A stretch of 16,171 bases of DNA from a virus (lineage: Duplodnaviria; Heunggongvirae; Uroviricota; Caudoviricetes). The stretch spans positions 1-16,171 of IMG/VR virus record IMGVR_UViG_2778261694_000005; one strand, given 5' to 3'. Both the position numbers and the translations under genes were made by a program. Within the stretch, counting starts at the first letter, position 1. Each line of letters begins with the position of its first letter. Of this stretch, positions 1-14,721 are shown in pieces. The notes below the pieces were generated by a model. That model ran no database searches. It saw only the letters and a list, made by a program, of their open reading frames with translations, and had not been told where the DNA came from.

Positions 1-201
1 TTACCCATTGGCGCGGCTTAAGAGCTTATTTTTGAATTCACAATGGTCACGATATAACCATCTTGCTCGCCCGTGGATAACTTTGGCTTTTGGCAGGTCG
101 CCGGACTTAATCCGGTCATAGATGAAGGTTTTACCGAAGCCAGTATCGGCCATGATGAATTTCAAATCAACCAGTGAATCAGGTTGTAGTTCGTGTTGCA
201 T
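1..201 (-). CDS. xis: Excisionase / AlpA-family small DNA-binding protein (66 aa)
   Basis: Complete ORF with GGAG RBS about 9 nt upstream of the ATG at 201. Small basic protein with an HTH-like core (DTGFGKTFIYDRIKSGDLP) typical of excisionase/AlpA proteins. Sits at the distal end of the leftward operon, where xis precedes int in lambdoid phages. Confidence 0.6.
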   Translation of the reverse strand: MQHELQPDSLVDLKFIMADTGFGKTFIYDRIKSGDLPKAKVIHGRARWLYRDHCEFKNKLLSRANG

Positions 202-244
202 GAGTGCTATCTCCGAATAGGGAATCGAACCTGCAAATCAGGCA

Positions 245-266
245 AGAAAAAACCGCCATCAGGCGG
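245..266 (-). terminator. Intrinsic terminator (leftward)
   Basis: Minus-strand reading: stem CCGCC / loop / GGCGG (253-266) followed by TTTTTTCT (plus-strand A-tract 245-252). Overlaps the stop codon of the 259-426 ORF. Confidence 0.5.
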
Positions 267-426
267 CTTGGTGTTCTTTCAGTTCTTCAATTCGAATATT
301 GGTTACGTCTGCATGTGCTATCTGCGCCCATATCATCCAGTGGTCATAGCAGTCGTTGATGTTCTCTGCTTCGATAACTCTGTTGAATGGTTCTCCATTC
401 CATTCACCTGTGACTCGGAAGTGCAT
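259..426 (-). CDS. Small hypothetical phage protein (55 aa, MHFRVTGEWNGEPFNRVIEAENINDCYDHWMIWAQIAHADVTNIRIEELKEHQAA)
   Basis: ORF below the 60-aa cutoff of the supplied track. ATG at 426 is preceded by GGAG 7 nt upstream; stop TGA sits inside the terminator hairpin. Same orientation as the flanking operon. Confidence 0.5.
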   Translation of the reverse strand: MHFRVTGEWNGEPFNRVIEAENINDCYDHWMIWAQIAHADVTNIRIEELKEHQAA

Positions 427-465
427 TTATCATCTCCATAAAACAAAACCCGCAGTAGCGAGTTC

Positions 466-494
466 AGATAAAAGAAATCCCCGCGAGTGCGAGG
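466..494 (-). terminator. Candidate intrinsic terminator (leftward)
   Basis: Minus-strand hairpin CCUCGC-ACUC-GCGGGG (one G-U pair) followed by AUUUCUUUUAUC, just downstream of the 499-729 ORF. Confidence 0.4.
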
Positions 495-498
495 ATTG

Positions 499-729
499 TT
501 ATTCACCTTTGACGACAAGTTGCAGGTTAGCCACGGTTAACCTCCTGCGGCGGTTCTGGTAGAGGCATCCTTCTTTAACCAGATGCTCAAACTTGCTGTA
601 ATAACCGATACGGCTTAGTGTTTCTTTCCCTGCATTCTCGCCTTCTTTGAGAATTCCTCTTTCGCTAAGAATCAGATCGTGTTTTGTTCCGGTAATAACA
701 TATTTGCCTAGGTCTATGTTTAGCTTCAT
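499..729 (-). CDS. Hypothetical protein (76 aa)
   Basis: ORF with GGAG RBS about 9 nt upstream of the ATG at 729; co-oriented with the early-left operon. No recognisable motif. Confidence 0.5.
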   Translation of the reverse strand: MKLNIDLGKYVITGTKHDLILSERGILKEGENAGKETLSRIGYYSKFEHLVKEGCLYQNRRRRLTVANLQLVVKGE

Positions 730-745
730 TGTTAATTACTCCATG

Positions 746-1060
746 TTAATTTATTCGTATGCCTGCTCTTTCTTCATCGAGTTTTTTTAGCTTGTATCGC
801 ATAGCTCTTACTGAATAAATTGAGCGGCAGGTTGCAATTGCTATTTCTTCTGCGGAGAACTTACCGAAAAGTGATACTTCGGCTCTTGTCCATCGTCTTC
901 CACGAAGTCGGCTAACAATGTCAGCGCCAATCCTTGTTGCTTTCGCCATTACTGCTTTTTCAGTCCTTTCCAGTTTTTCAGCGATAACTTCAACTGGCAT
1001 TGTCGCCGCTACTTCGCGTAAGAAATCGACTTCCCATTTCTCCCATGGAGTCTTTTTCAT
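746..1060 (-). CDS. Hypothetical protein (104 aa)
   Basis: Co-oriented ORF tightly packed between neighbours. No recognisable catalytic motif; weak RBS, so the start is uncertain. Confidence 0.5.
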   Translation of the reverse strand: MKKTPWEKWEVDFLREVAATMPVEVIAEKLERTEKAVMAKATRIGADIVSRLRGRRWTRAEVSLFGKFSAEEIAIATCRSIYSVRAMRYKLKKLDEERAGIRIN

Positions 1061-1071
1061 AGGCGATACCG

Positions 1072-1554
1072 TTATTTGATAAGAAGTGAAGGTTTCCCAA
1101 CTTTGAGTTGAGCGCCGGGGATATTTATTCCTGCTTTTAGTTGGTGTTTGATTGCCAACTTGTCGGCTTTAATTGTCGTTTCAAACTCAACGTATTCAGG
1201 AGGAATGGCGCTTGAGTCGATGATTTCTACAGTTTCTGACGGTTTGCGGATTGTTACCTGGTGAATACCTGCTCGAATCTTTTTCTTGCCAACCATTTCA
1301 AGCGATGACGCTATATACGCCATAATGTTGTCAATCTTATTTTGAATTACTGCGGCTCGTTCATTTAGTGACTTTGCCTCTTCCTTGAGGCATTCAGCAT
1401 AACCAGATTCATTTTTAATAATGGCAAGAAGTTGCTCTATTTTATCGGTAAATTCTCCTTCCATGCCTTCTATTGTGTCAGCAATCATCTCTGGTTCTAA
1501 ATCTGAATCCATCAGCTTTGCGTATTCATTGGCAATTTCATACAGTTTGCTCAT
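1072..1554 (-). CDS. Gp157-like phage protein (160 aa), recombination-module associated
   Basis: Acidic helical protein immediately downstream of the recT/HNH genes with a 4-nt overlap with the HNH ORF. Resembles, from memory, the siphovirus Gp157 family that often accompanies phage single-strand annealing proteins; family assignment is tentative. Confidence 0.5.
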   Translation of the reverse strand: MSKLYEIANEYAKLMDSDLEPEMIADTIEGMEGEFTDKIEQLLAIIKNESGYAECLKEEAKSLNERAAVIQNKIDNIMAYIASSLEMVGKKKIRAGIHQVTIRKPSETVEIIDSSAIPPEYVEFETTIKADKLAIKHQLKAGINIPGAQLKVGKPSLLIK

Positions 1555-2018
1555 TTGCCATTCCTCTCAGTGGAGATCCCAGAAGAAACCTCAGCAACTA
1601 TCCTTGCCTCGCAGGCGTCGACAAAGCTACCAAACGACCCAAGATACTCATTCATGAATGTGGCTCTCCATTTTCCTCTTTGCTTGTGAAACCCAACTCC
1701 AGTAATGCCAGATGTGTTATTTTTCTGTTTTCTCTTGTTCAGAAGATTTATTTGCTGAGAGACGCACCTAAGGTTTTCTATTCGGTTATCACTCGGGTTT
1801 CCATTGATATGGTCTATTACCATCCCTTCTGGAATTTCACCGTGGTGAATTTCCCATACAACCCTATGCACGTATTCTCTTTTTCCGTTAATGCTTACAA
1901 TGCAATGGCCAGATTTTGTTTTTCCTCCTGCCTTATCACCAGCCCTCATCCATCGTGCTGGCTTAATCCGCCAAAAAAGCAATCCATCTTCATAACGAAA
2001 CAATTCAGACGCTTTCAT
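1551..2018 (-). CDS. HNH homing-type endonuclease (155 aa)
   Basis: Contains the HNH-3 type motif VIDHINGNPSDNRIENLR and a C-terminal NTSGITGVGFHKQRGKWRA segment (AP2-like DNA-binding region). Overlaps the recT stop by 14 nt. Confidence 0.75.
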   Translation of the reverse strand: MKASELFRYEDGLLFWRIKPARWMRAGDKAGGKTKSGHCIVSINGKREYVHRVVWEIHHGEIPEGMVIDHINGNPSDNRIENLRCVSQQINLLNKRKQKNNTSGITGVGFHKQRGKWRATFMNEYLGSFGSFVDACEARIVAEVSSGISTERNGK

Positions 2019-2913
2019 GCCGAATCTCTATTTTTTCTTTACATTCCATGTAGACTGCCTGGACGTTTTGTTGCAGCTTCATACCATGTGTGAGCCTGTA
2101 GGCATTAGCGAAGATGCGCTTAAGGTCATCCATGTTTTCAGCCTGAGCCATTTCATCACAAAGAAGTTGTGCTTTATCCGTTATTTCCTGCTGGCGTTTC
2201 CGTTCATCTTCGCGGATATCTTCCTCTGATTTGTGCGGCATAACTGGTTCAGTCCACACACCTTCTTCTTCGTTTAGTACGTGAATAGCACTATCAAGAC
2301 GTGATGCCTTAGGCCAATACTTGCTTGCACGCTTTACGACCGTCTTTCGCGCCATCTCATTCCAGTGATTTACCCATGGTCCTTTATCGCTGAAGGCCGC
2401 CTTGCTTGTTTTCCTTACAGCCTCAATTTCAGCCAGACTCATCTCTTCCGTTAGATAATCACCTGCTGGCGTCTTAACTGTGCAGTAAACGCCAACGATA
2501 TCACCACGATCACCGAAGGCGTTGTATTTATGGGTTGGTGCTTTATCAAGCCCGTTTGACTCATAGGTATCGTTAGCATGAACAAGTTTTGCCTGACCCC
2601 ATGAGATAACACCAGACTCCATTGCAATATGGAGCAATCCCATATAACTGATATCAAGGCACACCATGCCGTCGCGCGGAACCAGATAAGCCAGTTTGCT
2701 GGCCGGGTTTAAGGTGATGCCGATCGCCGCAACGTTGATGATAGCGTTCTGTGCGCTGGTCGGATTTGCCAGTGCCGTTTTAGCCAGGTAATCATTTTTC
2801 TGGAAATACTGAATTGCAAACTGGCTTTCCTTAGCCCATGTCACCGTCTGTTCAGTCAATGCTCCGCAGAATAACTGCTCTTGCTGTTTAACGAATTCAA
2901 CGATATTGCTCAT
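2005..2913 (-). CDS. recT: RecT-family single-strand annealing recombinase (302 aa)
   Basis: The segment GPWVNHWNEMARKTVVKRASKYWP matches the conserved RecT core (Rac RecT GPWVTHWEEMAKKTAIRRLFKYLP, from memory). GGAG RBS upstream; occupies the bet position of the PL operon. Confidence 0.85.
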   Translation of the reverse strand: MSNIVEFVKQQEQLFCGALTEQTVTWAKESQFAIQYFQKNDYLAKTALANPTSAQNAIINVAAIGITLNPASKLAYLVPRDGMVCLDISYMGLLHIAMESGVISWGQAKLVHANDTYESNGLDKAPTHKYNAFGDRGDIVGVYCTVKTPAGDYLTEEMSLAEIEAVRKTSKAAFSDKGPWVNHWNEMARKTVVKRASKYWPKASRLDSAIHVLNEEEGVWTEPVMPHKSEEDIREDERKRQQEITDKAQLLCDEMAQAENMDDLKRIFANAYRLTHGMKLQQNVQAVYMECKEKIEIRHESV

Positions 2914-3221
2914 GCAGCTTCTCCAAAAATGTGTCTGCGTTTGAATATTGCGAAGGCATATTCAGCCTTAACTCTTTCGGTTATTGCATCCCAGAACCAT
3001 TCAGCGGCTTTTTCCTGATAGTTACAGTCATCATCTTCCAGCCAGTCGATAGCGTCCTTAGTGTGTTCATCTGGTTTATATGAGCGAAGCATTTCGCTTA
3101 TTGGGTCGCAACGTTTGCAGAGGCGATCAACTTCACTGTTGATTCGTTCGTAATCTTCATCAGTAAAACTTGCGATTATTTGCGATATTTCACGCTTATC
3201 ATTCAGAGTCAGAATCATCAT
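2910..3221 (-). CDS. Hypothetical acidic protein (103 aa)
   Basis: ATGATG start with AGGAG RBS 5 nt upstream; 4-nt overlap with the recT start. No recognisable motif. Confidence 0.55.
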   Translation of the reverse strand: MMILTLNDKREISQIIASFTDEDYERINSEVDRLCKRCDPISEMLRSYKPDEHTKDAIDWLEDDDCNYQEKAAEWFWDAITERVKAEYAFAIFKRRHIFGEAA

Positions 3222-3302
3222 CTTTCTCCTGTTCTTTGTGCTGATTGAGCATTTCTTTCATCTGACGAATGAATTCTTCGTCTGACCAGTTATCTGTAAA
3301 AC

Positions 3303-3455
3303 TCATTTCCTGCGATACCACGGAAGGTTGATAGCTGATTTCATCGCTTTATTTGCTTCAAGCCACATTTTTGAATCACCAATAAATCGGGCTATTACTG
3401 CTTTGTTCTGTGCAGCACGAAGCATCTGGTGATTAATGGCTATTTCATTGCGCAT
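3303..3455 (-). CDS. kil: Kil-like small protein (50 aa), putative host division inhibitor
   Basis: Sub-threshold ORF with a strong GGAGG RBS 5-9 nt upstream of the ATG at 3455. Contains IARFIGDSKM, which resembles the lambda Kil core as I recall it. Lies directly downstream of the cIII-like gene, as in lambda. Confidence 0.5.
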   Translation of the reverse strand: MRNEIAINHQMLRAAQNKAVIARFIGDSKMWLEANKAMKSAINLPWYRRK

Positions 3456-3574
3456 AACGCCTCCAGTTGTTTCTTTGCTGCTCTGATTAATTGTTTAACT
3501 CGGCGTGATAATTCAGATTCGTGCGGGTAGAAAGCGGACATGACGCCGCTACCCGCGAGCTGAAAGTGCATCAT
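3440..3574 (-). CDS. cIII: CIII-like small protein (44 aa), putative FtsH inhibitor
   Basis: The track ORF 3440-3679 is a read-through extension; the supported start is the ATGATG at 3574, which has an AAGGAG RBS 6 nt upstream. The product (MMHFQLAGSGVMSAFYPHESELSRRVKQLIRAAKKQLEALCAMK) has the amphipathic ES-L-R--K-L pattern of the lambda CIII central helix. Confidence 0.55.
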   Translation of the reverse strand: MMHFQLAGSGVMSAFYPHESELSRRVKQLIRAAKKQLEALCAMK

Positions 3575-3638
3575 GGGTAACTCCTTATATTTGATTGCAT
3601 AACGAAAACGCCTCGAGTGAAGCGTTATTGGTATGCAT

Positions 3639-3664
3639 ATAAAAAAGCCCTCACACTGGAGGGC
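3639..3664 (-). terminator. Intrinsic terminator (leftward) within the PL operon
   Basis: GCCCTC-ACACTG-GAGGGC hairpin (3647-3664) followed on the minus strand by a U6 tract (plus-strand AAAAAA 3641-3646). Confidence 0.6.
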
Positions 3665-3782
3665 AAAGAAGATTTCCAATAATCAGAACAAGTCGGCTCC
3701 TGTTTAGTTACGAGCGACATTGCTCCGTGTATTCACTCGTTGGAATGAATACACAGTGCAGTGTTTATTCTGTTGTTTATGC

Positions 3783-3809
3783 CAAAAATAAAGGCCGACT
3801 ATGCGGCCT
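3783..3809 (-). terminator. Intrinsic terminator (leftward) at the end of the 207-aa gene
   Basis: AGGCCG-ACTATG-CGGCCT hairpin (3792-3809) followed on the minus strand by UUUAUUUUUG; overlaps the gene stop codon. Confidence 0.55.
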
Positions 3810-4422
3810 CGGAAGGAAGTCCAATCATCTTATTCAAATCTTCTACCCGTAAAGCAGGAAGTGCTGCACTTGCTTTATCTGCTTCTTTTGGTAGCAACTC
3901 TTTGCTTTCAGGCCAGACCTCAATAAGTCGCTTAACTGTTGTGACTGAGTTCAAAGCAGCCCATACATTTGATTCGATATCCTTTTTCCTGGCTTCAAGT
4001 TTTTGTTGCAATTCGCAGATTTCATCAAACCTTTTTGTTATTTTGTGTTCTGCGTCAAACATGCATTTATCTTTGTTGGGGGTAGGGAGAAATATATCTT
4101 CACCGTTGCCGTCTTTTCCGTATGAATGCCAGCCAACCCTTCTTCCAGATACAGTCAGATAAATCGAACTTGAACTGACATCGCGTGAGTAAAATGAACA
4201 TCCAAGCTTTTGAAGTTCCTCACTTGCAGCCATTAACTTTGATGCCAGCTGGTCCACTTCTTCGGTTTTCTTTTTCCCGCCAAACGCAATAACTCTGGCG
4301 TCAAGTGCAAGCTGGTTCTTTAACTTTGTTACTTCTTCAAGTTCAGTGAAAACCCCAGACTTAATTAAAGCGTTACGAGCGATTTCCTCTTTCATTCTCG
4401 TAGTTAAGCGGATTGATGACAT
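3799..4422 (-). CDS. Hypothetical protein (207 aa from the RBS-supported start; track ORF extends to 4482)
   Basis: Long ORF immediately downstream of the N-like gene. The internal ATG at 4422 has a GAGG RBS about 9 nt upstream, whereas the ATG at 4482 lies inside N. Predicted helical/coiled-coil and charged; no motif recognised. Confidence 0.65.
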   Translation of the reverse strand: MSSIRLTTRMKEEIARNALIKSGVFTELEEVTKLKNQLALDARVIAFGGKKKTEEVDQLASKLMAASEELQKLGCSFYSRDVSSSSIYLTVSGRRVGWHSYGKDGNGEDIFLPTPNKDKCMFDAEHKITKRFDEICELQQKLEARKKDIESNVWAALNSVTTVKRLIEVWPESKELLPKEADKASAALPALRVEDLNKMIGLPSEAA

Positions 4423-4483
4423 ATTAATTCCTCTCAAATAAGTGGTTTGCTGCCTAATTTCATTTTCTGGCGACCAACACAAG

Positions 4484-4867
4484 TCACCTCGCCGTCAGTT
4501 GTTTTGATTTCCGGTAGCCTGCCGCGTAAATGGCTACGTTTGGAAGACATACACCAGTTTCTGGTTGCTTATGTCCAAACTCATTCGCGTACACAATGGC
4601 CGCTCGCTCCAGATTGCGTCTGTATTCTTTCTGTTGCCAGATCACGTCCTGTGCCATGAACTTAATTGGCTTAGCGTCTTCTATGCGCTCAGGCGTTTCG
4701 TGAGTACCTTTAGCCTGAATCTGCGCTCTGCTTAGAGTAGGGCGGTGTAATACTTCTGAACTTATTGCTTCTTCGCGGGCCAGTACGCCGTTAGCTAATG
4801 CCTTTGCCTTTAAACGCTCACGACGACGAGAACGTGAATTGCCTTTGAACTGAGTTCTGCGTGTCAT
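4484..4867 (-). CDS. N: N-like transcription antiterminator (127 aa)
   Basis: First gene after the about 240-nt leader leftward of OL/PL, with a strong AGGAGG RBS. The N-terminus carries an arginine-rich motif (RSRRRERLKAKALANG) like the lambda/P22 N ARM, and boxB-type hairpins occur at both nut positions. Confidence 0.7.
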   Translation of the reverse strand: MTRRTQFKGNSRSRRRERLKAKALANGVLAREEAISSEVLHRPTLSRAQIQAKGTHETPERIEDAKPIKFMAQDVIWQQKEYRRNLERAAIVYANEFGHKQPETGVCLPNVAIYAAGYRKSKQLTAR

Positions 4868-5032
4868 ATAGACCTCCTGATGAACTTTGGTGGTGTGGTA
4901 GGTGGGAGACCCATTTCGACCTGTTTCGGCCTACTTCAATTCGGCAATAGTCCCGCAGGCCTCGCCGCTTTACGTGCGGCATATTCCCGTCCATGAACCC
5001 TTCACCACACCCCAAAGTTCACTTTGGTTATT

Positions 5033-5047
5033 GCGCTTTGTCAGCGC
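5033..5047 (-). promoter_or_regulatory. nutL boxB RNA hairpin (GCGCUGACAAAGCGC)
   Basis: Minus-strand sequence GCGCTGACAAAGCGC: 5-bp stem with a GACAA pentaloop, in the PL leader upstream of N. I recall this as the P22-type boxB. No canonical boxA was found beside it. Confidence 0.6.
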
Positions 5048-5109
5048 CGTAGATTCATATTCGAATCGTTGTATATTCACCGCCCTGGTGAGTAGTGCGT
5101 CCTGCTGAT

Positions 5110-5200
5110 GGGTAAACTTTATCGGAATGATAAATTAATGGCAATAGCAAAATGATAAATTCTTTTGATTTTCAAATATCGTATTGATTCTTATGGTGTT
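5110..5200 (-). promoter_or_regulatory. Putative OL/PL operator-promoter region
   Basis: AT-rich region with repeated TGATAAATT motifs (5128-5136, 5153-5161) and an inverted half-site TTTATC (5118-5123). The same TGATAAA motif recurs in the cI-cro intergenic region. Exact -35/-10 elements could not be assigned. Confidence 0.45.
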
Positions 5201-5340
5201 TTATTTTGTTGTAGGAATTCGACAGGATAAATAAAGAGATTTGAGGGAGATCTGGATTGCGTGGTTTAGCAAGTTGTATCAATCAGTTTTTCAATAAATA
5301 CAATGAGTTATGTTTTTTTAGGTGGGGGGATCGTGAGGCA

Positions 5341-5365
5341 AAGAAAACCCGGCGCTGAGGCCGGG
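5341..5365 (-). terminator. Intrinsic terminator (leftward) closing the cI-proximal accessory locus
   Basis: Minus-strand CCCGGC-CUCAGC-GCCGGG hairpin followed by UUUUCUU, immediately after the 33-codon ORF and upstream of OL/PL. Confidence 0.6.
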
Positions 5366-5376
5366 TTATGTAGGCA

Positions 5377-5478
5377 TTATGCGGCTTTTTTGGTGTGTGC
5401 TGACGAGCGAGCCAGAATCTCGTTAATGAGAGATCTCAGGGTCATTGCATCTTTGTGCAGAGTGGACATGGTTTTCAT
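5377..5478 (-). CDS. Candidate small protein (33 aa, MKTMSTLHKDAMTLRSLINEILARSSAHTKKAA)
   Basis: Sub-threshold ORF with a GAGG RBS 7 nt upstream of the ATG at 5478, followed within 12 nt by an intrinsic terminator. Could instead be non-coding RNA or a chance ORF. Confidence 0.35.
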   Translation of the reverse strand: MKTMSTLHKDAMTLRSLINEILARSSAHTKKAA

Positions 5479-5547
5479 TGCGTTTCCTCGGTTTATTTTA
5501 TGGTACTAGCCTAGTTCAAATAGACTATATGAAATCTTGATTTACTA

Positions 5548-5928
5548 TTAAGGCCATTGGGTTGGTGGAAGATCGTGGGTTTTTATCTGCGTATTTGCTT
5601 CCACACATTTATCATAGTCTAATTTCTCTACAGCAAGCAATAGTGATTCAGCATACATCAATCCTTGTTTGATGTTCATAACATTTATGCTTGCACTTGC
5701 GGCATCCATATCCTTTGCTGTCTCTACCATGTGCTCAAAGCTTTGAGCAATAGAGTCAACACCGTTTTTCATCCTTGTAAACACTAATTTTAGCTCATCA
5801 AGGCTTGGATTCGTTAGATCATACATCCCATGCATTCCATGGGCTTCGAATAACTCTGACAACGATCTAAGGGCGAAGTTCACAGAATCAATAACTTGGT
5901 CGTACTTTTTCTTATCAAGATCATTCAT
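5548..5928 (-). CDS. Hypothetical protein (126 aa) in the rexAB-equivalent position, candidate lysogen-expressed accessory factor
   Basis: Clean ORF co-oriented with and immediately downstream of cI, between cI and OL/PL. Visibly AT-rich and AAA/AAT-rich codon usage compared with flanking phage genes. No transmembrane segment or known motif recognised. Confidence 0.7.
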   Translation of the reverse strand: MNDLDKKKYDQVIDSVNFALRSLSELFEAHGMHGMYDLTNPSLDELKLVFTRMKNGVDSIAQSFEHMVETAKDMDAASASINVMNIKQGLMYAESLLLAVEKLDYDKCVEANTQIKTHDLPPTQWP

Positions 5929-6045
5929 TAAAAATATAACCTTTTAACTATTTGATATTGCTGCATTTATATCAATATATGTATTTCACATATATCACCC
6001 AAACGTCTCTTCAGGTCACTGGCTATCAGCTATGTGACGATAAAG

Positions 6046-6750
6046 TCACGAACTTTTCAGCCACTCCCTTGCCTCGATGTCATCCAGATGGCGTGACTGC
6101 TTCAGAATACCAGCCACATACTCCACCTTTGCTACTTGATGATAAGGCAACGTTATTGGTCTGTGGTCCTGGTTGATGCTTGTAAACTGGTATTCTCCGT
6201 CTCTGTCATAGCCAAGAACTTTGATCATGTTGTGTCCTTCAACGGTTCTGACAAACACCTCATCACCCGGGAATACTTTGGTGTTAGGCTCAATGAGTAC
6301 ATATTCTCCTGATTTTATTCTAGGCCACATGCTGTCTCCTTTCACACGAAGGCCAAAGGCATCTGGATCATCGCTATAAATTTTGAGCCACCCATCGCGC
6401 TCTTCGGTCATCTCGATGGCACCATCAACACCAAGAATTGCCTCACCAACCACGCGCACTAACCCTTTTCTTACCTGACCGACAAAAGTTAAAGAATCTG
6501 AGCATGATGCAATTGGTGTTACATCATGTACCAAATCAAGCCACCCATTAGGTAACCCAAGTGCGGCTTCAAATTTTCTTGCTAGTTTATCCCCTATGTT
6601 TCGAGTGCTTTTTTCACCGGAGACTTGCGTGAGTTGAGAAGGGCTAACCCCAAGCTTATCGGCAAAGCTTGCATTAGTGTTACCCGCGATTTTTTTATGC
6701 TCATCTAGCAAAAACGCCAGATTCGATTTGCGAATATCTTTGTTTTCCAT
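6046..6750 (-). CDS. cI: CI-type prophage repressor (234 aa), HTH plus S24 LexA-like peptidase domain
   Basis: N-terminal HTH (FADKLGVSPSQLTQV) and C-terminal S24 autoprotease motif (VKGDSMWP with a downstream Lys). Divergent from the cro-like gene across an operator-containing spacer. Confidence 0.85.
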   Translation of the reverse strand: MENKDIRKSNLAFLLDEHKKIAGNTNASFADKLGVSPSQLTQVSGEKSTRNIGDKLARKFEAALGLPNGWLDLVHDVTPIASCSDSLTFVGQVRKGLVRVVGEAILGVDGAIEMTEERDGWLKIYSDDPDAFGLRVKGDSMWPRIKSGEYVLIEPNTKVFPGDEVFVRTVEGHNMIKVLGYDRDGEYQFTSINQDHRPITLPYHQVAKVEYVAGILKQSRHLDDIEAREWLKSS

Positions 6751-6863
6751 CTCACAATTTTCCCTCTATTTAGCAAATGGATAAATACGCAATATGATAA
6801 ATTTACATTGCGGCTGGTTTATCAAAATGGTAAAGTTATTCTGTATGATAAACGGAGGCACTA
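6751..6863. promoter_or_regulatory. OR / PRM-PR divergent promoter-operator region
   Basis: 113-bp spacer between divergent cI and cro carrying several copies of the TGATAAA motif (6794-6800, 6846-6852, GGATAAAT at 6778-6785, inverted TTTATCA at 6818-6824). Candidate -10 TATGAT at 6844-6849 upstream of cro. Confidence 0.5.
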
Positions 6864-7097
6864 ATGAGTAATGAACTACTACGCTGGCGAAAAGAGGCTT
6901 CTAGTGAGGAATGGAAGCGACTCGCCGCATTAGCGAAAACTTCAGTTGGCTATCTTGACCAGATTGCATATGGATTTCGAAGAGCTTCCCCTGATAAAGC
7001 GAATGCAATCGAAGAAGCTACTCGTAATTTCACGGCCTATAAACCCGTGAAAAAGGAAAACCTGGTGTTCGTATCGCGTAGAGCATCAGCAGCATAA
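6864..7097 (+). CDS. cro: Cro-like HTH repressor (77 aa)
   Basis: Small HTH protein with a GGAGG RBS, divergent from cI and first gene of the rightward operon. Confidence 0.75.
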   Translation: MSNELLRWRKEASSEEWKRLAALAKTSVGYLDQIAYGFRRASPDKANAIEEATRNFTAYKPVKKENLVFVSRRASAA

Positions 7098-7104
7098 GTA
7101 ACAC

Positions 7105-7150
7105 CGCTCTTTTCACAATGGACATTCGTCCTACGTCGCTGACAAAGCGA
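7105..7150 (+). promoter_or_regulatory. nutR (boxA CGCTCTTTT plus boxB UCGCUGACAAAGCGA)
   Basis: boxA-like CGCTCTTTT at 7105-7113 and a boxB hairpin TCGCT-GACAA-AGCGA at 7136-7150 between cro and cII. The loop is identical to that of the nutL boxB. Confidence 0.55.
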
Positions 7151-7235
7151 GCCCCAAGATATCTGACCAACTAAGGTCATATGCGTTTCCACGCATACCT
7201 TTCAACTAACTATTCACTATTGGAAATATTAAGAA

Positions 7236-7535
7236 ATGACACAAGCAAGTTACAGCAAGCCAACACAGCGAGAAATTGATCGCGCTGAAACTGATTTACT
7301 CATCAACCTGTCAACGCTTACCCAGCGCGGTCTGGCAAAGATGATTGGCTGTCATGAATCGAAGATAAGCAGAACGGACTGGAGATTTATTGCTTCGGTC
7401 TTGTGTGCTTTCGGAATGGCATCAGACATCAGTCCGATTAGCAGGGCTTTTAAGTATGCGCTTGATGGACTCACCAATAAAAAACGCCCGGTGTGCAAGA
7501 CCGAGCGTTCTGAACAAATCCAGATGGAGTTCTGA
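7236..7535 (+). CDS. cII: CII transcriptional activator (99 aa)
   Basis: The C-terminus (LTNKKRPVCKTERSEQIQMEF) matches the lambda CII C-terminus (ILTNKKRPAATERSEQIQMEF, from memory); positioned after cro/nutR. Confidence 0.85.
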   Translation: MTQASYSKPTQREIDRAETDLLINLSTLTQRGLAKMIGCHESKISRTDWRFIASVLCAFGMASDISPISRAFKYALDGLTNKKRPVCKTERSEQIQMEF

Positions 7536-7567
7536 GGTCATTACTGGATCTATCAACAGGAGTAATT

Positions 7568-7729
7568 ATGACAAAACGTCGTAAGAAATACCAGGAAAAA
7601 GAAGAGATTCGACACCCTGATTCACCTGAGGGATTAGTGGTAGCCGCAGCAAATAACAGGGCGTTCGCAGAGCGCCTTGTTGGTGTTTACAGACTAGCCA
7701 AAGCAGGAGTGAAACATGGGCGTCGTTAA
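7568..7729 (+). CDS. Small basic ORF (53 aa) between cII and the replication initiator
   Basis: AGGAG RBS 6-10 nt upstream of the ATG at 7568; basic N-terminus (MTKRRKKYQEKEE). Sub-threshold ORF; function unknown. Confidence 0.35.
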   Translation: MTKRRKKYQEKEEIRHPDSPEGLVVAAANNRAFAERLVGVYRLAKAGVKHGRR

Positions 7730-7778
7730 GTTAGCTGATTACAGGCATAACCCTGTACAACATCAGGAGGCATCCAGT

Positions 7779-8606
7779 ATGGGGTATGTCTCTATACACC
7801 GCCAGTTTATGGACAGCAGGCTCTATAAGGACTCTCAGGCAGTACATCTTTGGCTTCACTTAATCCTCAAGGCTAATCACGAATCTACTGTCGTCAATAC
7901 GGATATCGGTCCGATAACTGTTGATCGCGGTCAGATGATAACTGGACGCCCGTCGCTGGTCAGAGAAACATTCATCCCCGACAACAAAGTTCGGAGCTTA
8001 TTACGGACTTTTGAGTCGAAAGGGATGCTTAATATTTGCTCGATGGGGAAGAAATTTAGCCTGTTTACAATCGTTAAATATGACGATTTTCAGGCAAAAA
8101 ATTGTCCAACGGTTGTCCAACGGTTGTCCAACGCAAACACCAGTAATGGCGCGGCTCTCAGCGGAGATTGTCCAACGGTTGTCCAACGGTTGTCCATAAA
8201 CAATAATATAAATAATATCTCTAATACTGACGTATTAGAGAGTGCCACAGCAGACAAAAAGTCTGACAAGAAAAAACCTTCCGTTAGCTGTCAGGATGTT
8301 GTCGATGCTTACCACGAAATCCTTCCTGAAGCGCCAAGAATCCGCGCACTGAATGACAAGCGTAAAAACCAGATCCGAACGTTCTGGCGCAAAGCCGGAG
8401 TGATAACCCGCCAGCTTGACGGGCATGGGTTCACGATGCAGGACTGGAGAAATTATTTGAGCTACGTAGGCGAAAATTGCCGATGGATGTTCGAAGAACG
8501 CCCAAACCATCAACGCGGAACCGTCTGGCACAAAAAGGGATTTGATTTCCTGCTTAACGACAATACCTACCTGAAAGTTCGTGAGGGTGAACACGATGAC
8601 CGATAA
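7779..8606 (+). CDS. Replication initiation protein, O-like / replisome organizer (275 aa from the RBS-supported start; track ORF starts at 7716)
   Basis: The ATG at 7779 has an AGGAGG RBS 8 nt upstream. The gene contains the iteron array and AT-rich stretch internally, as lambda O contains ori, and directly precedes the DnaB-type helicase. Confidence 0.7.
   Translation: MGYVSIHRQFMDSRLYKDSQAVHLWLHLILKANHESTVVNTDIGPITVDRGQMITGRPSLVRETFIPDNKVRSLLRTFESKGMLNICSMGKKFSLFTIVKYDDFQAKNCPTVVQRLSNANTSNGAALSGDCPTVVQRLSINNNINNISNTDVLESATADKKSDKKKPSVSCQDVVDAYHEILPEAPRIRALNDKRKNQIRTFWRKAGVITRQLDGHGFTMQDWRNYLSYVGENCRWMFEERPNHQRGTVWHKKGFDFLLNDNTYLKVREGEHDDR
8102..8196. repeat. Origin iterons: two clusters of 3 tandem 11-bp repeats TTGTCCAACGG, followed by an AT-rich stretch
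   Basis: Direct repeats at 8102-8134 and 8168-8196 (last copy of each cluster degenerate) inside the O-like gene, followed by an AT-rich segment 8197-8240 (candidate unwinding element). Confidence 0.8.
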
Positions 8607-10032
8607 TTTTTATGCGCCGCCCCATAGCATCGAGGCAGAGCAGGCGGTGATTGGTGGATTGCTTCTGGATGATGACAGCAGTGAGCGCGTCCAGAAAGTT
8701 CTGGCGATGCTGAAGCCCGATTCATTTTACAGCCGACCACACAAAATCCTTTTCGAAGAAATAACCAGAATGCACTGGGAGCAAAAGCCAGTAGATGGCC
8801 TGACGCTTTTCGATGAACTGGAGCGTAAATCGTTAACGGTGTCTGTTGGCGGTTTTGCTTATATCGCTGAGATCGCAAAGAACACGCCAAGCGCAGCAAA
8901 CATCGTTGCCTATGCAATGCAGGTTCGTGAAACCGCAATGGAACGCTACGCCATCAACCGCATGACTGAAGCGACGGAATTGCTCTATTCCCGCAACGGA
9001 ATGACTGCGACGCAGAAGTACGAAGCTATTCAGTCGATTTTCACGCAACTGACAGACCATGCAAAAACCGGATCGCGTCGCGGCCTTCGTTCATTTGGTG
9101 AGGTCATGGAAGACTGGGTTAGCGACCTTGAGAAGAGATTTGACCCATCAGGAGAACAACGGGGAATGAGCACAGGGATCCCATCGTTGGACAGGATGCT
9201 GTCACCGAAAGGTCTGGTGAAAGGCTCTCTGTTTGTCATTGGCGCTCGCCCTAAGATGGGGAAAACGACGCTATACAGCCAGATGGCAATCAATTGCGCA
9301 GTGCATGAGAAAAAGCCCGCATTGATGTTCAGCCTTGAAATGCCAGGTGATCAGATACTGGAAAAACTGGTAGGGCAGAAGTCTGGTGTTAACCCGAATA
9401 TTTTTTACCTTCCGGCGACAAATGACGCCGATGACGGCTATCAGGGTGATTACGATGGTGACTTCAACAGGGCGATAGAAACAGCCAATCGCTTGAGTGA
9501 AATAGACCTGCTTTACATCGACGACACGCCGGGATTATCTCTGGCTCAAATCGTCAGCGAAAGCCGTCGAATCAAGCGAGAAAAAGGATGTGTTGGCATG
9601 ATTCTGGTCGATTACCTGACACTAATGACCGCTGAGAAGGCCGATCGCAACGACCTTGCTTACGGCATGATCACCAAAGGACTGAAGAACCTTGCCAAAG
9701 AGCTTGATTGCGTTGTTGTGCTTCTGACGCAGCTTAACCGCGCACTGGAAAGCAGAACCAATAAACGCCCATTACCAAGTGACTCACGAGATACAGGGCA
9801 GATTGAACAGGATTGCGATTATTGGGTCGGGATCCATCGTGAAGGCGCTTTTGATGACAGTGTTCCACCTGGTGAAACTGAACTAATCCTTCGTCTCAAT
9901 CGTCATGGCAATACCGGCACGGTGTATTGCATTCAGGCAAATGGCGCTATTTATGACACAGACCAACAGTCTGCTGAAATGCGCCGACGTGAACGCGAGG
10001 AACCGCAGTCCAAGAAGAAAGGAGGATTCTGA
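8596..10032 (+). CDS. Replicative DNA helicase, DnaB family (478 aa from the ATG at 8596)
   Basis: Walker A motif GARPKMGKTT and DnaB-like N- and C-terminal architecture; position equivalent to P22 gene 12. The track start at 8581 lacks an RBS, whereas the ATG at 8596 follows GAGGGTG. Confidence 0.85.
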   Translation: MTDNFYAPPHSIEAEQAVIGGLLLDDDSSERVQKVLAMLKPDSFYSRPHKILFEEITRMHWEQKPVDGLTLFDELERKSLTVSVGGFAYIAEIAKNTPSAANIVAYAMQVRETAMERYAINRMTEATELLYSRNGMTATQKYEAIQSIFTQLTDHAKTGSRRGLRSFGEVMEDWVSDLEKRFDPSGEQRGMSTGIPSLDRMLSPKGLVKGSLFVIGARPKMGKTTLYSQMAINCAVHEKKPALMFSLEMPGDQILEKLVGQKSGVNPNIFYLPATNDADDGYQGDYDGDFNRAIETANRLSEIDLLYIDDTPGLSLAQIVSESRRIKREKGCVGMILVDYLTLMTAEKADRNDLAYGMITKGLKNLAKELDCVVVLLTQLNRALESRTNKRPLPSDSRDTGQIEQDCDYWVGIHREGAFDDSVPPGETELILRLNRHGNTGTVYCIQANGAIYDTDQQSAEMRRREREEPQSKKKGGF

Positions 10033-10060
10033 TGACCATCTACATCACTGAGCTAATAAC

Positions 10061-10092
10061 AGGCCTGCTGGTAATCGCAGGCCTTTTTATTT
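10061..10092 (+). terminator. Intrinsic terminator (tR2-like) after the replication genes
   Basis: AGGCCTGC-TGGTAATC-GCAGGCCT hairpin (8-bp stem) followed by TTTTTATTT. Confidence 0.6.
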
Positions 10093-10108
10093 GGGGGAGA
10101 GGGAAGTC

Positions 10109-10549
10109 ATGAAAAAACTAACCTTTGAAATTCGATCTCCAGCACATCAGCAAAACGCTATTCACGCAGTACAGCAAATTCTTCCAGACCCAACCAAACC
10201 AATCGTAGTAACCATTCAGGAACGCAACCGCAGCTTAGACCAAAACCGAAAGCTTTGGGCTTGCCTTGGTGACGTCTCTCGTCAGGTTGAATGGCATGGT
10301 CGCTGGCTGGATGCAGAAAGCTGGAAGTGTGTGTTTACCGCAGCATTAAAGCAGCAGGACGTTGTTCCTAACCTTGCCGGGAATGGCTTTGTGGTAATAG
10401 GCCAGTCAACCAGCAGGATGCGTGTAAGCGAATTTGCGGAGCTATTAGAGCTTATACAGGCATTCGGTACAGAGCGTGGCGTTAAGTGGTCAGACGAAGC
10501 GCGACTGGCTCTGGAGTGGAAAGCGAGATGGGGAGATCGGGCAGCATGA
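10109..10549 (+). CDS. ninB: NinB (Orf) recombination mediator (146 aa)
   Basis: Protein starting [55 protein letters not shown], essentially identical to lambda NinB as recalled. The track start at 10091 is an upstream TTG extension; the ATG at 10109 has a GGGAGAGGGAAG RBS. Confidence 0.9.
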
Positions 10550-10719
10550 TGCGATGTTATCGGTGCGGTGAATGCAAAGAAGATAACCGCTTCCGACCAA
10601 ATCAACCTTACTGGAATCGATGGTGTCTCCGATGTGAAAGAACACCAACAGGGGTGTTACCACTACCGCAGGAAAAGGAGGACGTGTGGCGAGACAGCGA
10701 CGAAGTATCACCGACATAA
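10546..10719 (+). CDS. ninD: NinD (57 aa), small Cys-rich protein
   Basis: Starts at the ATGATG overlapping the ninB stop (ATGA). Sequence [16 protein letters not shown]... with C-x2-C...C-x2-C, as in lambda NinD. Confidence 0.8.
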
Positions 10720-10868
10720 TCTGCGAAAACTGCAAATACCTTCCAACGAAACGCTCCAGAAATAAACGCAAGCCAATCCCAAAAGAATCTGACGTAAAAA
10801 CCTTCAACTACACGGCTCACCTGTGGGATATCCGGTGGCTAAGACATCGTGCGAGGAATACAAGGTGA
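10686..10868 (+). CDS. ninE: NinE (60 aa)
   Basis: GTG start; product [59 protein letters not shown], near-identical to lambda NinE from memory. Confidence 0.85.
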
Positions 10869-11035
10869 TTGACCCAAATCGAAGTTACGAACAAGAAAGC
10901 GTCGAGCTGGCTTTAACGTGCGCTAATTGCGGTCAGAAGCTGCATGTGCTGTAAGTTCACGTGTGTGAGCACTGCTGCGCAGAACTGATGAGCGATCCGA
11001 ATAGCTCGATGCACGAGGAAGAAGACGATGGCTAA
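10865..11035 (+). pseudogene. ninF: ninF interrupted by an in-frame TAA (29-codon N-terminal ORF 10865-10954; remaining frame continues to 11035)
   Basis: GTG start overlapping the ninE stop. Translation [29 protein letters not shown]-stop, then the same frame reads [26 protein letters not shown] and ends in the ATGgcTAA overlap with ninG. Lambda NinF as recalled has Glu where the TAA occurs here. Confidence 0.5.
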
Positions 11036-11639
11036 ACCAGCGCGAAGACGATGTAAAAACGATGAATGTCGGGAATGGTTTCACCCTGCATTCGCCAATC
11101 AGTGGTGGTGCTCTCCAGAGTGTGGAACCAAGATAGCACTCGAACGACGAAGCAAAGAACGCGAAAAAGCGGAAAAGGCAGCAGAGAAGAAACGACGACG
11201 AGAGGAGCAGAAACAGAAAGATAAACTTAAGATTCGAAAACTCGCCTTAAAGCCCCGCAGTTACTGGATTAAACAAGCCCAACAAGCCGTAAACGCCTTC
11301 ATCAGAGAAAGAGACCGCGACTTACCATGTATCTCGTGCGGAACGCTCACGTCTGCTCAGTGGGATGCCGGACATTACCGGACAACTGCTGCGGCACCTC
11401 AACTCCGATTTGATGAACGCAATATTCACAAGCAATGCGTGGTGTGCAACCAGCACAAAAGCGGAAATCTCGTTCCGTATCGCGTCGAACTGATTAGCCG
11501 CATCGGGCAGGAAGCAGTAGACGAAATCGAATCAAACCATAACCGCCATCGCTGGACTATCGAAGAGTGCAAGGCGATTAAGGCAGAGTACCAACGGAAA
11601 CTCAAAGACCTGCGAAATAGCAGAAGTGAGGCCGCATGA
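11028..11639 (+). CDS. ninG: NinG (Rap) recombination endonuclease (203 aa)
   Basis: Cys-rich N-terminus ([24 protein letters not shown]) and overall sequence as lambda NinG; overlaps ninF and ninH with typical 4-nt overlaps. Confidence 0.9.
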
Positions 11640-11842
11640 CGTTCTCAGTAAAAACCATTCCAGACATGCTCGTTGAAGCATACGGAAACCAGACAGAAGT
11701 AGCACGCAGACTGAAATGTAGTCGCGGTACGGTCAGAAAATACGTTGATGATAAAGACGGGAAAATGCACGCCATCGTCAACGACGTTCTCATGGTTCAT
11801 CGCGGATGGAGTGAAAGAGATGCGCTATTACGAAAAAATTGA
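11636..11842 (+). CDS. ninH: NinH (68 aa)
   Basis: [37 protein letters not shown]... (Fis-like HTH), as lambda NinH. Confidence 0.85.
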
Positions 11843-12491
11843 TGGCAGCAAATACCGAAATATTTTGGTAGTTGGCGATCTGCACGGATGCTACACGAAC
11901 CTGATGAAAAAACTGGAGACGATAGGATTCGACACCAAAAAAGACCTGCTTATCTCAGTGGGCGATTTGGTTGATCGCGGTACAGAGAACGTCGAATGCC
12001 TGGAATTAATCACATTCCCCTGGTTCAGAGCTGTACGTGGAAACCATGAGCAAATGATGATTGATGGCTTATCAGAGCGTGGAAACGTTAATCACTGGCT
12101 GCTTAATGGCGGTGGCTGGTTCTTTAATCTCGATTACGACAAAGAAATTCTGGCTAAAGCTCTTGCCCATAAAGCAGATGAACTTCCGTTAATCATCGAA
12201 CTGGTGAGCAAAGATAAAAAATATGTCATCTGCCACGCCGATTATCCTTGTGACGAATACGAATTTGGAAAGCCAGTTGATCATCAGCAGGTAATCTGGA
12301 ACCGCGAACGAATCAGCAACTCACAAAACGGGATCGTGAAAGAAATTAAAGGCGCGGACACGTTCATCTTTGGTCATACGCCAGCAGTGAAACCACTCAA
12401 ATTTGCCAACCAGATGTATATCGATACCGGCGCAGTGTTCTGCGGAAATCTCACATTGATTCAGGTACAGGGAGAAGGCGCGTGGGCATAA
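11820..12491 (+). CDS. ninI: Ser/Thr protein phosphatase, lambda PPase / NinI-like (223 aa from the ATG at 11820)
   Basis: Metallophosphatase motifs GDLHGC, GDLVDRG and GNHE. Matches the lambda phosphatase starting [15 protein letters not shown]; the track start at 11745 is an upstream extension overlapping ninH. Confidence 0.9.
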
Positions 12492-13000
12492 GAGAACTAA
12501 ACCTCACCAAAGAACAGCATGAGTGGCTGAATGGCTGGCTTGAACTGTGGGGCGCATGGGTTTATTCAGGTCGTCTGGAAAAGCGCATGAGCAGCGTAAT
12601 AGCGAAGTTCATGGAGAGCGTAGAGCCGGGAAGAGTTATGACAAGGCCAATGTGCAATGATGATGATGGAATGTTGATTTCTCAGGTCGTCGATTCCGTC
12701 ATGTACATTGACAAGAAAGCCTTTGGCATCCTCCTCAGCTACTACGCTCATGGTTCATCTAAGCGAGCAATTGCATCCTACTATCACGCGACTGCAAAGC
12801 CACGCAAGATGTGTGGACGTGGTGGCGAGGGATGTAGAAAACCTTCACTGGCAACCTGTAGAAACGAAATTGACGACATCCTGAAAGCGTCGTTATTTGT
12901 TTTGTACCAGCCAATGCAAAATGCTTTCAAAATGCGTAAACGTGTTGAGAAAGTTAAGCATGTTGCTGTTAAAAGCCTTGACATGCAATTATCCATTTAG
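12482..13000 (+). CDS. Q: Late-gene antiterminator Q-like protein (172 aa)
   Basis: GTG start with a GGAGAAGG RBS, overlapping the ninI stop. Occupies the Q position immediately upstream of the PR'-like promoter and short terminated leader, and contains a Cys cluster ([10 protein letters not shown]...C). Not lambda Q by sequence; assignment is positional. Confidence 0.6.
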
Positions 13001-13007
13001 CCATAAT
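12978..13007 (+). promoter_or_regulatory. Candidate late promoter PR' (TTGACA - 18 bp - CATAAT)
   Basis: Perfect -35 TTGACA at 12978-12983 and -10 CATAAT at 13002-13007, straddling the Q stop codon as PR' does in lambdoid phages. Confidence 0.5.
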
Positions 13008-13017
13008 TAGAAGGTAA

Positions 13018-13059
13018 GCTGCCGTTAGTGACTCTTAAGTTGCAACGGTGGCTTTTTTT
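13018..13059 (+). terminator. Candidate tR' intrinsic terminator just downstream of PR'
   Basis: 9-bp stem (GCTGCCGTT / AACGGTGGC, two G-U pairs) with a 17-nt loop, followed by T7 (13053-13059). Would yield a short terminated leader unless modified by Q. Confidence 0.5.
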
Positions 13060-13063
13060 ATTT

Positions 13064-13138
13064 GGGTCAGTCGTATAAAGGTCATTACGGAAGGCTGTTA
13101 ACCTTCTTATCGTGGTTCGAGCCCACGCTGTCCCGCCA
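13064..13138 (+). tRNA. tRNA-Asn(GUU)-like gene, 75 nt, with one acceptor-stem mismatch
   Basis: Manual fold: acceptor GGGTCAG/CTGTCCC (T4:T69 mismatch), U8, A14, G18G19, anticodon stem GAAGG/CCTTC with loop CTGTTAA (anticodon GTT), T-arm CGTGG-TTCGAGC-CCACG, discriminator G, encoded CCA. Confidence 0.55.
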
Positions 13139-13143
13139 AACAT

Positions 13144-13219
13144 GCTGGTTTAGCTCCAATGGTAGAGCAGTCGCCTTGTAAGCGAATGGGTAGCGGTTCA
13201 AGTCCGTTAACCAGCACCA
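13144..13219 (+). tRNA. tRNA-Thr(UGU) gene, 76 nt
   Basis: Manual fold: acceptor GCTGGTT/AACCAGC, D-arm GCTC-CAATGGTA-GAGC, anticodon loop CTTGTAA (anticodon TGT), T-arm AGCGG-TTCAAGT-CCGTT, discriminator A, encoded CCA. Confidence 0.75.
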
Positions 13220-13300
13220 TAACTGAGCCGTAGCCACTGGCTATCCTGAATTCATCAGTGATAGTTACGCTGCGGCCTTCTACACATGATCTTCGTGAAA

Positions 13301-13342
13301 GCGGGTGGCAGGAGGTCGCGCTAACAACCTCCTGCCGTTTTG
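13301..13342 (+). terminator. GC-rich hairpin / weak terminator downstream of the tRNAs
   Basis: 10-bp stem GGCAGGAGGT / ACCTCCTGCC (13307-13336) with a 10-nt loop, followed by GTTTTG; flanking GCGGG/CCCGTGC could extend the structure. Confidence 0.4.
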
Positions 13343-13461
13343 CCCGTGCATATCGGTCACGAACAAATCTGATTACTAAACACAGTAGCCTGGATTTGTT
13401 CTATCAGTAATCGACCTTATTACTAATTAAATAGAGCAAATCCCCTTATTGGGGGTAAGAC

Positions 13462-14690: not shown

Positions 14691-14721
14691 ATTTTTTTGC
14701 AAATCACAAAGTCAATTTAAT

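Follow-up and report, generated by a model that had tools for sequence, protein, structure and literature searches.

A recombination module without its own exonuclease gene

The 16.2-kb window analyzed here, namely the whole stretch of 16,171 nucleotides (nt) at positions 1 to 16,171 of the IMG/VR virus record IMGVR_UViG_2778261694_000005, is the early region of a lambdoid (lambda-like) Escherichia coli prophage. Its leftward operon has a gene for a RecT-type annealase but none for a recognizable partner exonuclease. We consider it likely that this is a recombination module of the type found in phage HK140, which lacks an exonuclease of its own, would draw on single strands furnished by host enzymes or replication and, in this copy, has been interrupted by a selfish HNH endonuclease gene. 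In the order of transcription from pL, the module encodes a 103-amino acid (aa) protein with a predicted Gam fold, RecT, the inserted HNH protein, Gp157 and a 104-aa protein resembling P22 Abc1 and Mu gp9.

All these genes lie on the minus strand. The first module gene codes for the 103-aa acidic protein (2910-3221; phrog_3486), which has no match in Pfam. It is followed by RecT (2005-2913), a single-strand annealing protein of the 'SAP-4' type of Zheng et al., which is recovered by the hidden Markov models (HMMs) PF03837 (E 5.6e-32; 111.3 bits against a cut-off of 24) and phrog_148 (E 5.6e-89), and whose annealing activity is predicted from this family membership. Next comes the free-standing gene for a homing-type HNH endonuclease (1551-2018; PF13392 HNH_3, E 1.6e-23; phrog_99), situated at the recT/gp157 junction, and then Gp157 itself (1072-1554), a Sipho_Gp157 protein in the position of lambda exo that matches phrog_253 and, over its full length, PF05565 (E 1.6e-37; 129.5 bits, cut-off 28.6). 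The last gene encodes the 104-aa helix-turn-helix repeat protein (746-1060; phrog_323, E 2.8e-20). Successive genes overlap by 4 nt (103-aa gene and recT), 14 nt (recT and the HNH gene) and 4 nt (the HNH gene and gp157). For the 103-aa, RecT, HNH and Gp157 genes, the positions and families given in a first-pass annotation made from the sequence alone are upheld by the list of open reading frames (ORFs), Pfam and PHROGs.

That annotation had also found no exonuclease gene in the leftward operon, and the absence extends to the window as a whole. None of its ORFs matches an exonuclease family in Pfam or PHROGs, and tblastn searches of all its frames with lambda Exo, the lambda-Exo-like protein of phage ENT47670 and the RecE-like protein of phage SEN22 gave no match, leaving no candidate elsewhere in the window or in another frame. 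The profile comparison of the neighboring ORFs with exonuclease families, which the annotation had proposed as a check, revealed no clear exonuclease. Likewise, no match to a single-stranded DNA-binding protein (SSB) was seen among the window ORFs in Pfam or PHROGs. The only non-coding stretches in the leftward operon are 202-498 and 3605-3798; the operon is nearly gap-free and therefore has no room for a missed gene.

The same arrangement recurs widely across Enterobacterales. Megablast recovers the region, in mosaic form, from 2343 of the 5426 complete E. coli genomes and from phage records numbering in the hundreds. Among 80 IMG/VR contigs coding for a Gp157 at least 96% identical to that of the window, the order 103-aa protein, RecT, Gp157, 104-aa protein is preserved at 78 loci and the recT/gp157 overlap at 79, and at none of the 80 is there a BLAST match to lambda Exo, RecE, lambda Gam, GamL or Mu Gam within 4 kb. 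The core occurs in phages HK140, Kapi1 and Louie (plaque-forming carriers include HK140, mEpX1 and Kapi1), and in prophages of five genera, as represented by E. coli, Salmonella, Serratia, Cronobacter and Klebsiella; those of the last three keep the order small protein, RecT, Gp157, with Gp157 67-77% identical. In both Kapi1 and HK140, recT (303 codons) shares 17 nt with gp157, and neither an HNH gene nor an exonuclease gene is present; for HK140, which forms plaques, the absence of an exonuclease gene holds over the complete genome.

What the first-pass annotation had noticed is, then, no anomaly; it is a conserved module type without a nuclease, and one already published. Zheng, Casjens, Davidson, Amundsen and Smith (2025, Genome Res; PMC12315714), who surveyed 325 lambdoid phages for their recombination modules, list the HK140 module as SAP-4 (a RecT-type annealase) with no SSB, no nuclease and a MuGam-type inhibitor. 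They record 84 of 246 lambdoid modules, about a third, as having no nuclease gene, and assign 46 phages to the P22 functional class, with anti-RecBCD and annealase functions alone (PMC12315714). Because of this census and the 96% identity of the window RecT to that of HK140, a RecT without a partner exonuclease can be recognized as a known and common lambdoid state. The window copy shows the features of the HK140-type class, namely an early-left cluster in which an annealase gene is accompanied by an anti-RecBCD-type gene and by no nuclease or SSB gene of its own, even though under a pure gene-content rule the inserted HNH gene would turn it nuclease-positive. Its Gp157, 103-aa and 104-aa proteins are 96-99% identical to their HK140 counterparts, and the gene order, the position in the early-left operon and the lack of an exonuclease are the same; it differs from HK140 in the HNH gene between recT and gp157 and in a recoded recT tail. 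The published description of HK140 leaves out the 103-aa gene (gp42) and the 104-aa gene (gp39) as module members.

Two better-known systems bracket this organization. The P22 module (arf-erf-abc1-abc2) resembles it in having an annealase without an exonuclease of its own, genes downstream of the annealase that handle RecBCD, and an Abc1 that falls in one PHROG with the 104-aa protein; it differs in that its annealase is Erf rather than RecT and in the presence of Abc2, a homologue of which is absent here. P22 is the classical precedent for such modules and uses Abc2-modified RecBCD. The lambda Red module (gam-bet-exo), like that of the window, comes after cIII and kil and consists of a small acidic protein with a Gam fold (predicted in our case), an annealase and a third gene. 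However, this third gene codes for a PD-(D/E)XK 5'-3' exonuclease in lambda and for Gp157 here, the window annealase is of the RecT type with a different C-terminal domain, and HMM searches detect no similarity between the Gam-like protein and Pfam Gam.

Gp157 and the partner-linked domain of RecT

In ENT47670 (Cronobacter) and Midgardsormr38 (Erwinia), homologues of the 103-aa protein (49% and 39% identity, respectively) and RecT are followed by a lambda-Exo-like gene, and in phi80 the lambda-Exo-like slot follows GamL and a RecT-type annealase. It is this slot that Gp157 fills in the window. Over residues 1-219 the window RecT is 49-61% identical to the RecTs of these three phages, whereas over its last ~80 residues identity drops to 16-17% with the Exo-partnered RecTs, as against 47-84% among Gp157-partnered RecTs. 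The C-terminal domain (2005-2250 in the window; residues ~220-302) thus comes in two unrelated versions, which track either Gp157 or the lambda-Exo-like partner. The C-terminal domain of lambda Beta is the binding site for Exo and SSB, and the partner-linked split suggests that the RecT domain seen here may be adapted to Gp157 or to another non-Exo partner.

One could go further and suppose that Gp157, alone or with the 104-aa protein, replaces the exonuclease, either as a nuclease of an unrecognized fold or as an adaptor for a host nuclease in the manner of P22 Abc2 with RecBCD. Gp157 does lie exactly at the lambda-Exo-like position of ENT47670, Midgardsormr38 and phi80, the RecT domain that switches with it is the exonuclease-binding one in lambda Beta, recT and gp157 are translationally coupled through their 17-nt overlap, and the gene downstream of gp157 shares a PHROG with P22 Abc1. 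Moreover, in Foldseek searches the Gp157 model gives weak matches to phage PD-(D/E)XK and YqaJ-type proteins (E 3e-3 to 0.5; template modeling score 0.2-0.5). We nonetheless regard such a replacement as unlikely. The top Foldseek matches of the AlphaFold2 model (predicted local distance difference test score (pLDDT) 81; a 68-residue helix, 21-88, and a small C-terminal beta domain) among viral models are other Gp157 proteins. Across divergent members of the family there is no conserved acidic triad and there are no conserved acidic or histidine catalytic residues, and on this ground Gp157 was rejected as a classical nuclease; an adaptor role would be compatible with all of these results. Others, too, class it as an end-binding protein, with the labels 'Mu Gam-like end protection' in PHROGs and 'MuGam' anti-RecBCD in Zheng et al.

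With Mu Gam, a Ku-like DNA end-binding protein, Gp157 shares a similar size, an N-terminal helix followed by a C-terminal beta region, the (D/N)KxAI and RxPS...D motifs, with the conserved residues Y5, K132, I135 and G147 of Gp157 being common to both, and an adjacent phrog_323 protein. The two differ in family assignment (PF07352 and phrog_491 for Mu Gam versus PF05565 and phrog_253 for Gp157), and in Mu the phrog_323 gene precedes gam, whereas here it follows gp157. The window Gp157 has no match to PF07352; two of 47 Gp157 relatives and the homologue from the Pantoea phage PdC23 align with it co-linearly at E 0.012-0.015, below threshold, and hhalign gave a non-significant probability of 1.4% for Gp157 against Mu Gam. 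Homology to Mu Gam was accordingly not obtained by hhalign, Pfam scans of the 47 relatives or PHROG membership, and the 'Mu Gam-like' label rests on PHROGs and Zheng et al. rather than on this analysis. Taken by its sequence features, Gp157 is probably an end-binding protein or a partner of RecT and not a nuclease. Distant versions also adjoin other genes: in the Pectobacterium phage ZF40 (L092, 1809-4486) one overlaps a 721-aa protein that is annotated as an exonuclease and has no Pfam match, and in Vibrio phages (D459; L094, 1534-2800) one overlaps a protein of 256 aa whose Rad52-like match is weak. Proteins of the Gp157 type generally accompany recombination genes in phages.

A mobile HNH gene and a recoded recT tail

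Alignment with HNH-less alleles of related phages, another check proposed by the first-pass annotation, identifies the HNH gene as an insertion. The single extra block in the window is the HNH ORF, with exact boundaries, and on the gp157 side the alleles are again homologous from the first codon onward; the start of gp157 is a GTG inside the end of recT in the HNH-less alleles versus an ATG within an ATGA overlap with the HNH stop codon in the window. The uninterrupted recT-gp157 junction is found in 292 E. coli genomes. Carriers of the HNH gene number four of the 5426 E. coli genomes, together with phage Louie and one of the 80 IMG/VR loci, and their copies are 99.3-100% identical. These near-identical copies have different neighbors, with Nmad5 in the window and other genes in Louie and strain LZYWN_4. 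The single solved relative of the HNH protein is the homing nickase I-HmuI (1u3e, E 9e-6), and its homologues, up to four per genome, occupy 3145 places across 2305 phage records, beside unrelated genes and also in unrelated virulent phages.

The 3' tail of recT next to the HNH gene (2023-2135, minus strand) is recoded. Relative to Kapi1, the first 777 nt of recT show 17 differences (2.2%), all synonymous, with no non-synonymous change over codons 1-259, a pattern that points to purifying selection on this part. The last 114 nt, in comparison, show 36 differences (31.6%), affecting 18 codons synonymously and 8 non-synonymously. In E. coli the recoded tail is restricted to the four genomes with the HNH gene, and it encodes the best-conserved part of the RecT C-terminal domain. 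Homing enzymes typically target conserved sequence of this kind. The tail may be a version of the homing site that is immune to cleavage, or else a tract of co-conversion, and the HNH protein putatively cleaves the HNH-less junction with biased inheritance of its gene as a result. Judged from these comparisons, the gene is a mobile insertion and in all probability a selfish homing endonuclease. It resembles the free-standing HNH enzymes of phages (I-HmuI-like HNH_3 proteins, including those of T1-like and T7-like phages) in its HNH_3 motif and similarity to I-HmuI, the presence/absence polymorphism at one exact junction, the diverged flank and the many copies in unrelated genomes. It differs from I-HmuI-type enzymes in being intergenic, with overlaps to both neighboring genes, rather than intron-encoded. 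A weak match to an AP2-type DNA-binding domain was seen in the PdC23 homologue only.

One option raised by the first-pass annotation was that the HNH gene is a mobile insertion that displaced the exonuclease. The mobility stands and the displacement falls, because the HNH-less relatives, in which the recT/gp157 overlap is 17 nt, lack an exonuclease as well: the HNH gene displaced nothing.

It is also conceivable that the HNH enzyme is the working nuclease of the module, generating nicks or breaks from which RecT substrates arise, but we hold this to be quite improbable. The gene overlaps both neighbors on the same strand, and Zheng et al. treat tightly packed HNH genes as probable module members, as proposed, for example, for ES18 (PMC12315714). 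In PdC23, moreover, an HNH protein 52% identical in aa sequence is encoded at the same ATGA junction before gp157, there after the gene for a different annealase, Erf. On the other side, the HNH gene is missing from ~99% of otherwise identical modules (4 versus 292 E. coli genomes; 1 of 80 IMG/VR loci) and viable phages without it exist. Its family is multi-copy and scattered beside unrelated genes in unrelated virulent phages, its one solved relative is a homing nickase, and the recoded flank is strictly linked to it. Zheng et al. themselves advise caution on HNH genes, which are mobile (PMC12315714). Finally, the idea that the module is a decaying remnant, which lost its exonuclease and retains no working recombination system in this prophage, can be put aside as highly improbable: although the operon seems truncated at its left end (an ORF of 76 aa in place of the ~93 aa of relatives, and few genes before xis), the gene set is intact and overlapping at 78 of 80 loci and in five genera, it is present in plaque-forming phages, and recT shows synonymous change alone over 259 codons, and such an intact conserved core in viable phages therefore speaks for a maintained design and not decay.

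Other HNH homing-type genes were encountered in the same operon elsewhere: between cIII and a 100-aa gene in a Serratia prophage (L096, 3130-3696), near kil in E. coli LZYWN_4 (L004, 5849-6361) and upstream in one IMG/VR contig (L038, 885-1316). The early-left operon seems to have been repeatedly invaded by genes of this type.

The 103-aa and 104-aa proteins

With kil and cIII as landmarks, the 103-aa gene, lying between kil and the annealase, falls in the gam slot of the lambda order cIII-kil-gam-bet-exo. In homologous RecT-Gp157 modules this slot is taken by a lambda-type Gam (phage Dewey) or by Pfam GamL (Klebsiella prophages), and the isoelectric point of the 103-aa protein (4.65) is close to that of GamL (4.70). 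Its AlphaFold2 model (pLDDT 91.8) is small and all helical, and the best match in the PDB is the RecBCD inhibitor lambda GamS, in agreement with a lambda Gam fold. An HMMER search against 1.84 billion representatives recovers a small family of ~100-aa proteins; not one column of their alignment is invariant, which speaks against enzymatic activity. Sequence comparisons connect this family to known inhibitors faintly: none of 31 members matches PF06064 (Gam) among the matches listed (25 of 30 matched families, E up to 10), and Pfam GamL is not matched by the family. An hhalign comparison with the lambda Gam alignment is weak (E 8.7e-4, probability 23%, 26 columns) and covers a DDDxxFQE motif at the equivalent C-terminal position, and a single-sequence comparison with GamL (E 0.005) was not reproduced with a two-sequence GamL profile. 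On the strength of model and position, we lean towards the 103-aa protein being a Gam-fold RecBCD inhibitor.

The 103-aa protein has a 95% identical counterpart in the Salmonella phage SEN22, where its gene adjoins a RecE-like gene; the stretch in question (L086, 5001-7013) encodes the 103-aa copy, then the RecE-like exonuclease, a protein of 189 aa (phrog_11517) and a member of phrog_323, but no annealase. The 103-aa gene is thus found in the company of more than one set of recombination genes. It is omitted by Zheng et al., who credit HK140 with MuGam alone and score SEN22 as having no inhibitor (PMC12315714).

A further option in the first-pass annotation, that one of the neighboring ORFs is a hidden exonuclease, finds no support beyond what was said of Gp157. 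The 103-aa protein, with no invariant residue, its helical Gam-like model and no sequence relative in the PDB, was rejected in this role. So was the product of the 207-aa ORF, an Nmad5 protein that is variable, being absent from HK140 and Louie, and that has no PDB relative.

The 104-aa gene follows gp157 at all 80 IMG/VR loci, and its product is probably the fourth and likely the last member of the module. Its PHROG, phrog_323, also takes in P22 Abc1 (E 1.3e-23) and Mu gp9 (E 5.2e-29), whose genes lie next to abc2 and directly upstream of Mu gam, respectively. BLASTP aligns the 104-aa protein weakly with Mu gp9 (32% over 44 aa, E 5e-5) and not with P22 Abc1; a direct Abc1 homologue was accordingly not accepted, their common PHROG notwithstanding. 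Across three phage types, a small phrog_323 helix-turn-helix repeat protein is seen beside an end-protection or anti-RecBCD gene (746-1060 in the window; L005, 5482-6325; L105, 131-755).

A proposed mechanism

Among the options raised by the first-pass annotation, reliance on host functions is the most consistent with these data, and it is the published view for P22 and HK140 (PMC12315714). We posit that upon induction the 103-aa protein would block RecBCD, as lambda Gam does, while Gp157 would bind or cap DNA ends, bind the module-specific C-terminal domain of RecT, or both. RecT would then anneal single strands with no phage exonuclease being involved; the likely source of these strands is host enzymes, such as RecJ with RecQ, or replication forks. 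NinB/Orf and NinG/Rap from the rightward operon may assist the annealing. The HNH protein would not be the missing resection nuclease; rather, its probable targets are the HNH-less recT-gp157 alleles of phages in the same cell, and repair of the cut would copy the HNH gene together with the recoded recT tail into them.

Three observations weigh against this account. The weak nuclease-type structural matches of Gp157 are the first. The second is PdC23, since its homologous HNH gene makes the pairing with gp157 older than a single recent insertion and possibly functional. The third, a mild one, concerns Chi sites. Phages with RecBCD inhibitors are expected to avoid Chi, and the count in HK140 does not suggest strong avoidance: it has four sites, all on the top strand (2143, 13519, 15106 and 16201), against 1.39 expected, with three of 100 shuffles reaching four. 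The window has none against 0.29 expected. Chi avoidance as an indirect test of RecBCD inhibition was therefore set aside, the counts in the window and HK140 being uninformative.

Genomic setting of the module

The leftward genes start from the gene for a cI-like S24 repressor (6046-6750). Between it and the N antiterminator (4484-4867, minus strand) lies a gene for a 126-aa protein to which no function is assigned (5548-5928, minus strand; phrog_16322, E 8.2e-89). In lambda the slot between the repressor gene and N is occupied by rexA and rexB, and the 126-aa protein may for this reason be expressed in the prophage. Then follow, all on the minus strand, Nmad5 (3799-4422; PF18757, E 7.7e-70), the cIII ORF (3440-3679; PF08134, E 7.8e-30), the start of which is probably internal, and kil (3303-3455; PF06301 Lambda_Kil, E 1.7e-20). 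In relatives, the place of Nmad5 between N and cIII is taken by ral, sieB or other accessory genes; Nmad5 is present in Kapi1 and, given its absence from HK140 and Louie, is a variable accessory gene. In the literature, Nmad5 is known solely for a presumed role in DNA modification and for triggering the Tmn defense system; Dhillonvirus phages escape Tmn through Nmad5 mutations (PMC11846954).

At the other end of the operon (202-729) the 76-aa ORF (499-729, minus strand) stands where relatives have a ~93-aa gene like that of Sf6 gp24, and the ead/Ea22-type genes of relatives are missing, giving the region its shortened look. The ~300 nt after this ORF contain several terminator-like hairpins (~250-269, 446-465 and 476-497), beyond which is an excisionase-like gene (1-201, minus strand).

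The rightward operon encodes Cro, CII, O-like and DnaB-like replication proteins, NinB/Orf, NinG/Rap, Q, lysis proteins, Rha and a terminase-associated HNH protein. NinB/Orf (10091-10549, plus strand; PF05772, E 1.3e-54) and NinG/Rap (11028-11639, plus strand; PF05766, E 1.2e-91) are accessory recombination proteins and not exonucleases. The second HNH protein, from another family (15821-16171, plus strand; PF01844, E 2.3e-16), follows the Rha-like gene and runs off the end of the window; we take it to be the terminase-associated HNH of HK97-like phages.

Implications

The Gam-fold assignment, the partner-linked domain of RecT and the Abc1-like gene are modest additions to a module type that, in exactly this form, has already been published. 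More tentatively, it is possible that the 103-aa protein represents a third, so far unrecognized, family of Gam-fold inhibitors and that Gp157, beyond any analogy to Mu Gam, is the dedicated partner of a swapped RecT C-terminal domain, in place of an exonuclease. If this were true, modules of both the HK140 type and the SEN22 type, the latter now scored as being without an inhibitor, would carry a RecBCD inhibitor, and Gp157 may load RecT at protected ends or recruit a host nuclease, with the whole amounting to a distinct and widespread exonuclease-free design for annealase systems.

For the classification of such modules, the case illustrates that selfish insertion can account for an HNH gene packed tightly into a recombination module, and gene position alone should therefore not be used to score a module nuclease. 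Similarly, the 'hypothetical' small protein beside RecT is probably a Gam-type RecBCD inhibitor, which would alter the classification of several module types. Finally, the RecT C-terminal domain, in tracking either Gp157 or Exo, offers a testable handle on partner specificity, which is of relevance to moving RecT systems between recombineering hosts.

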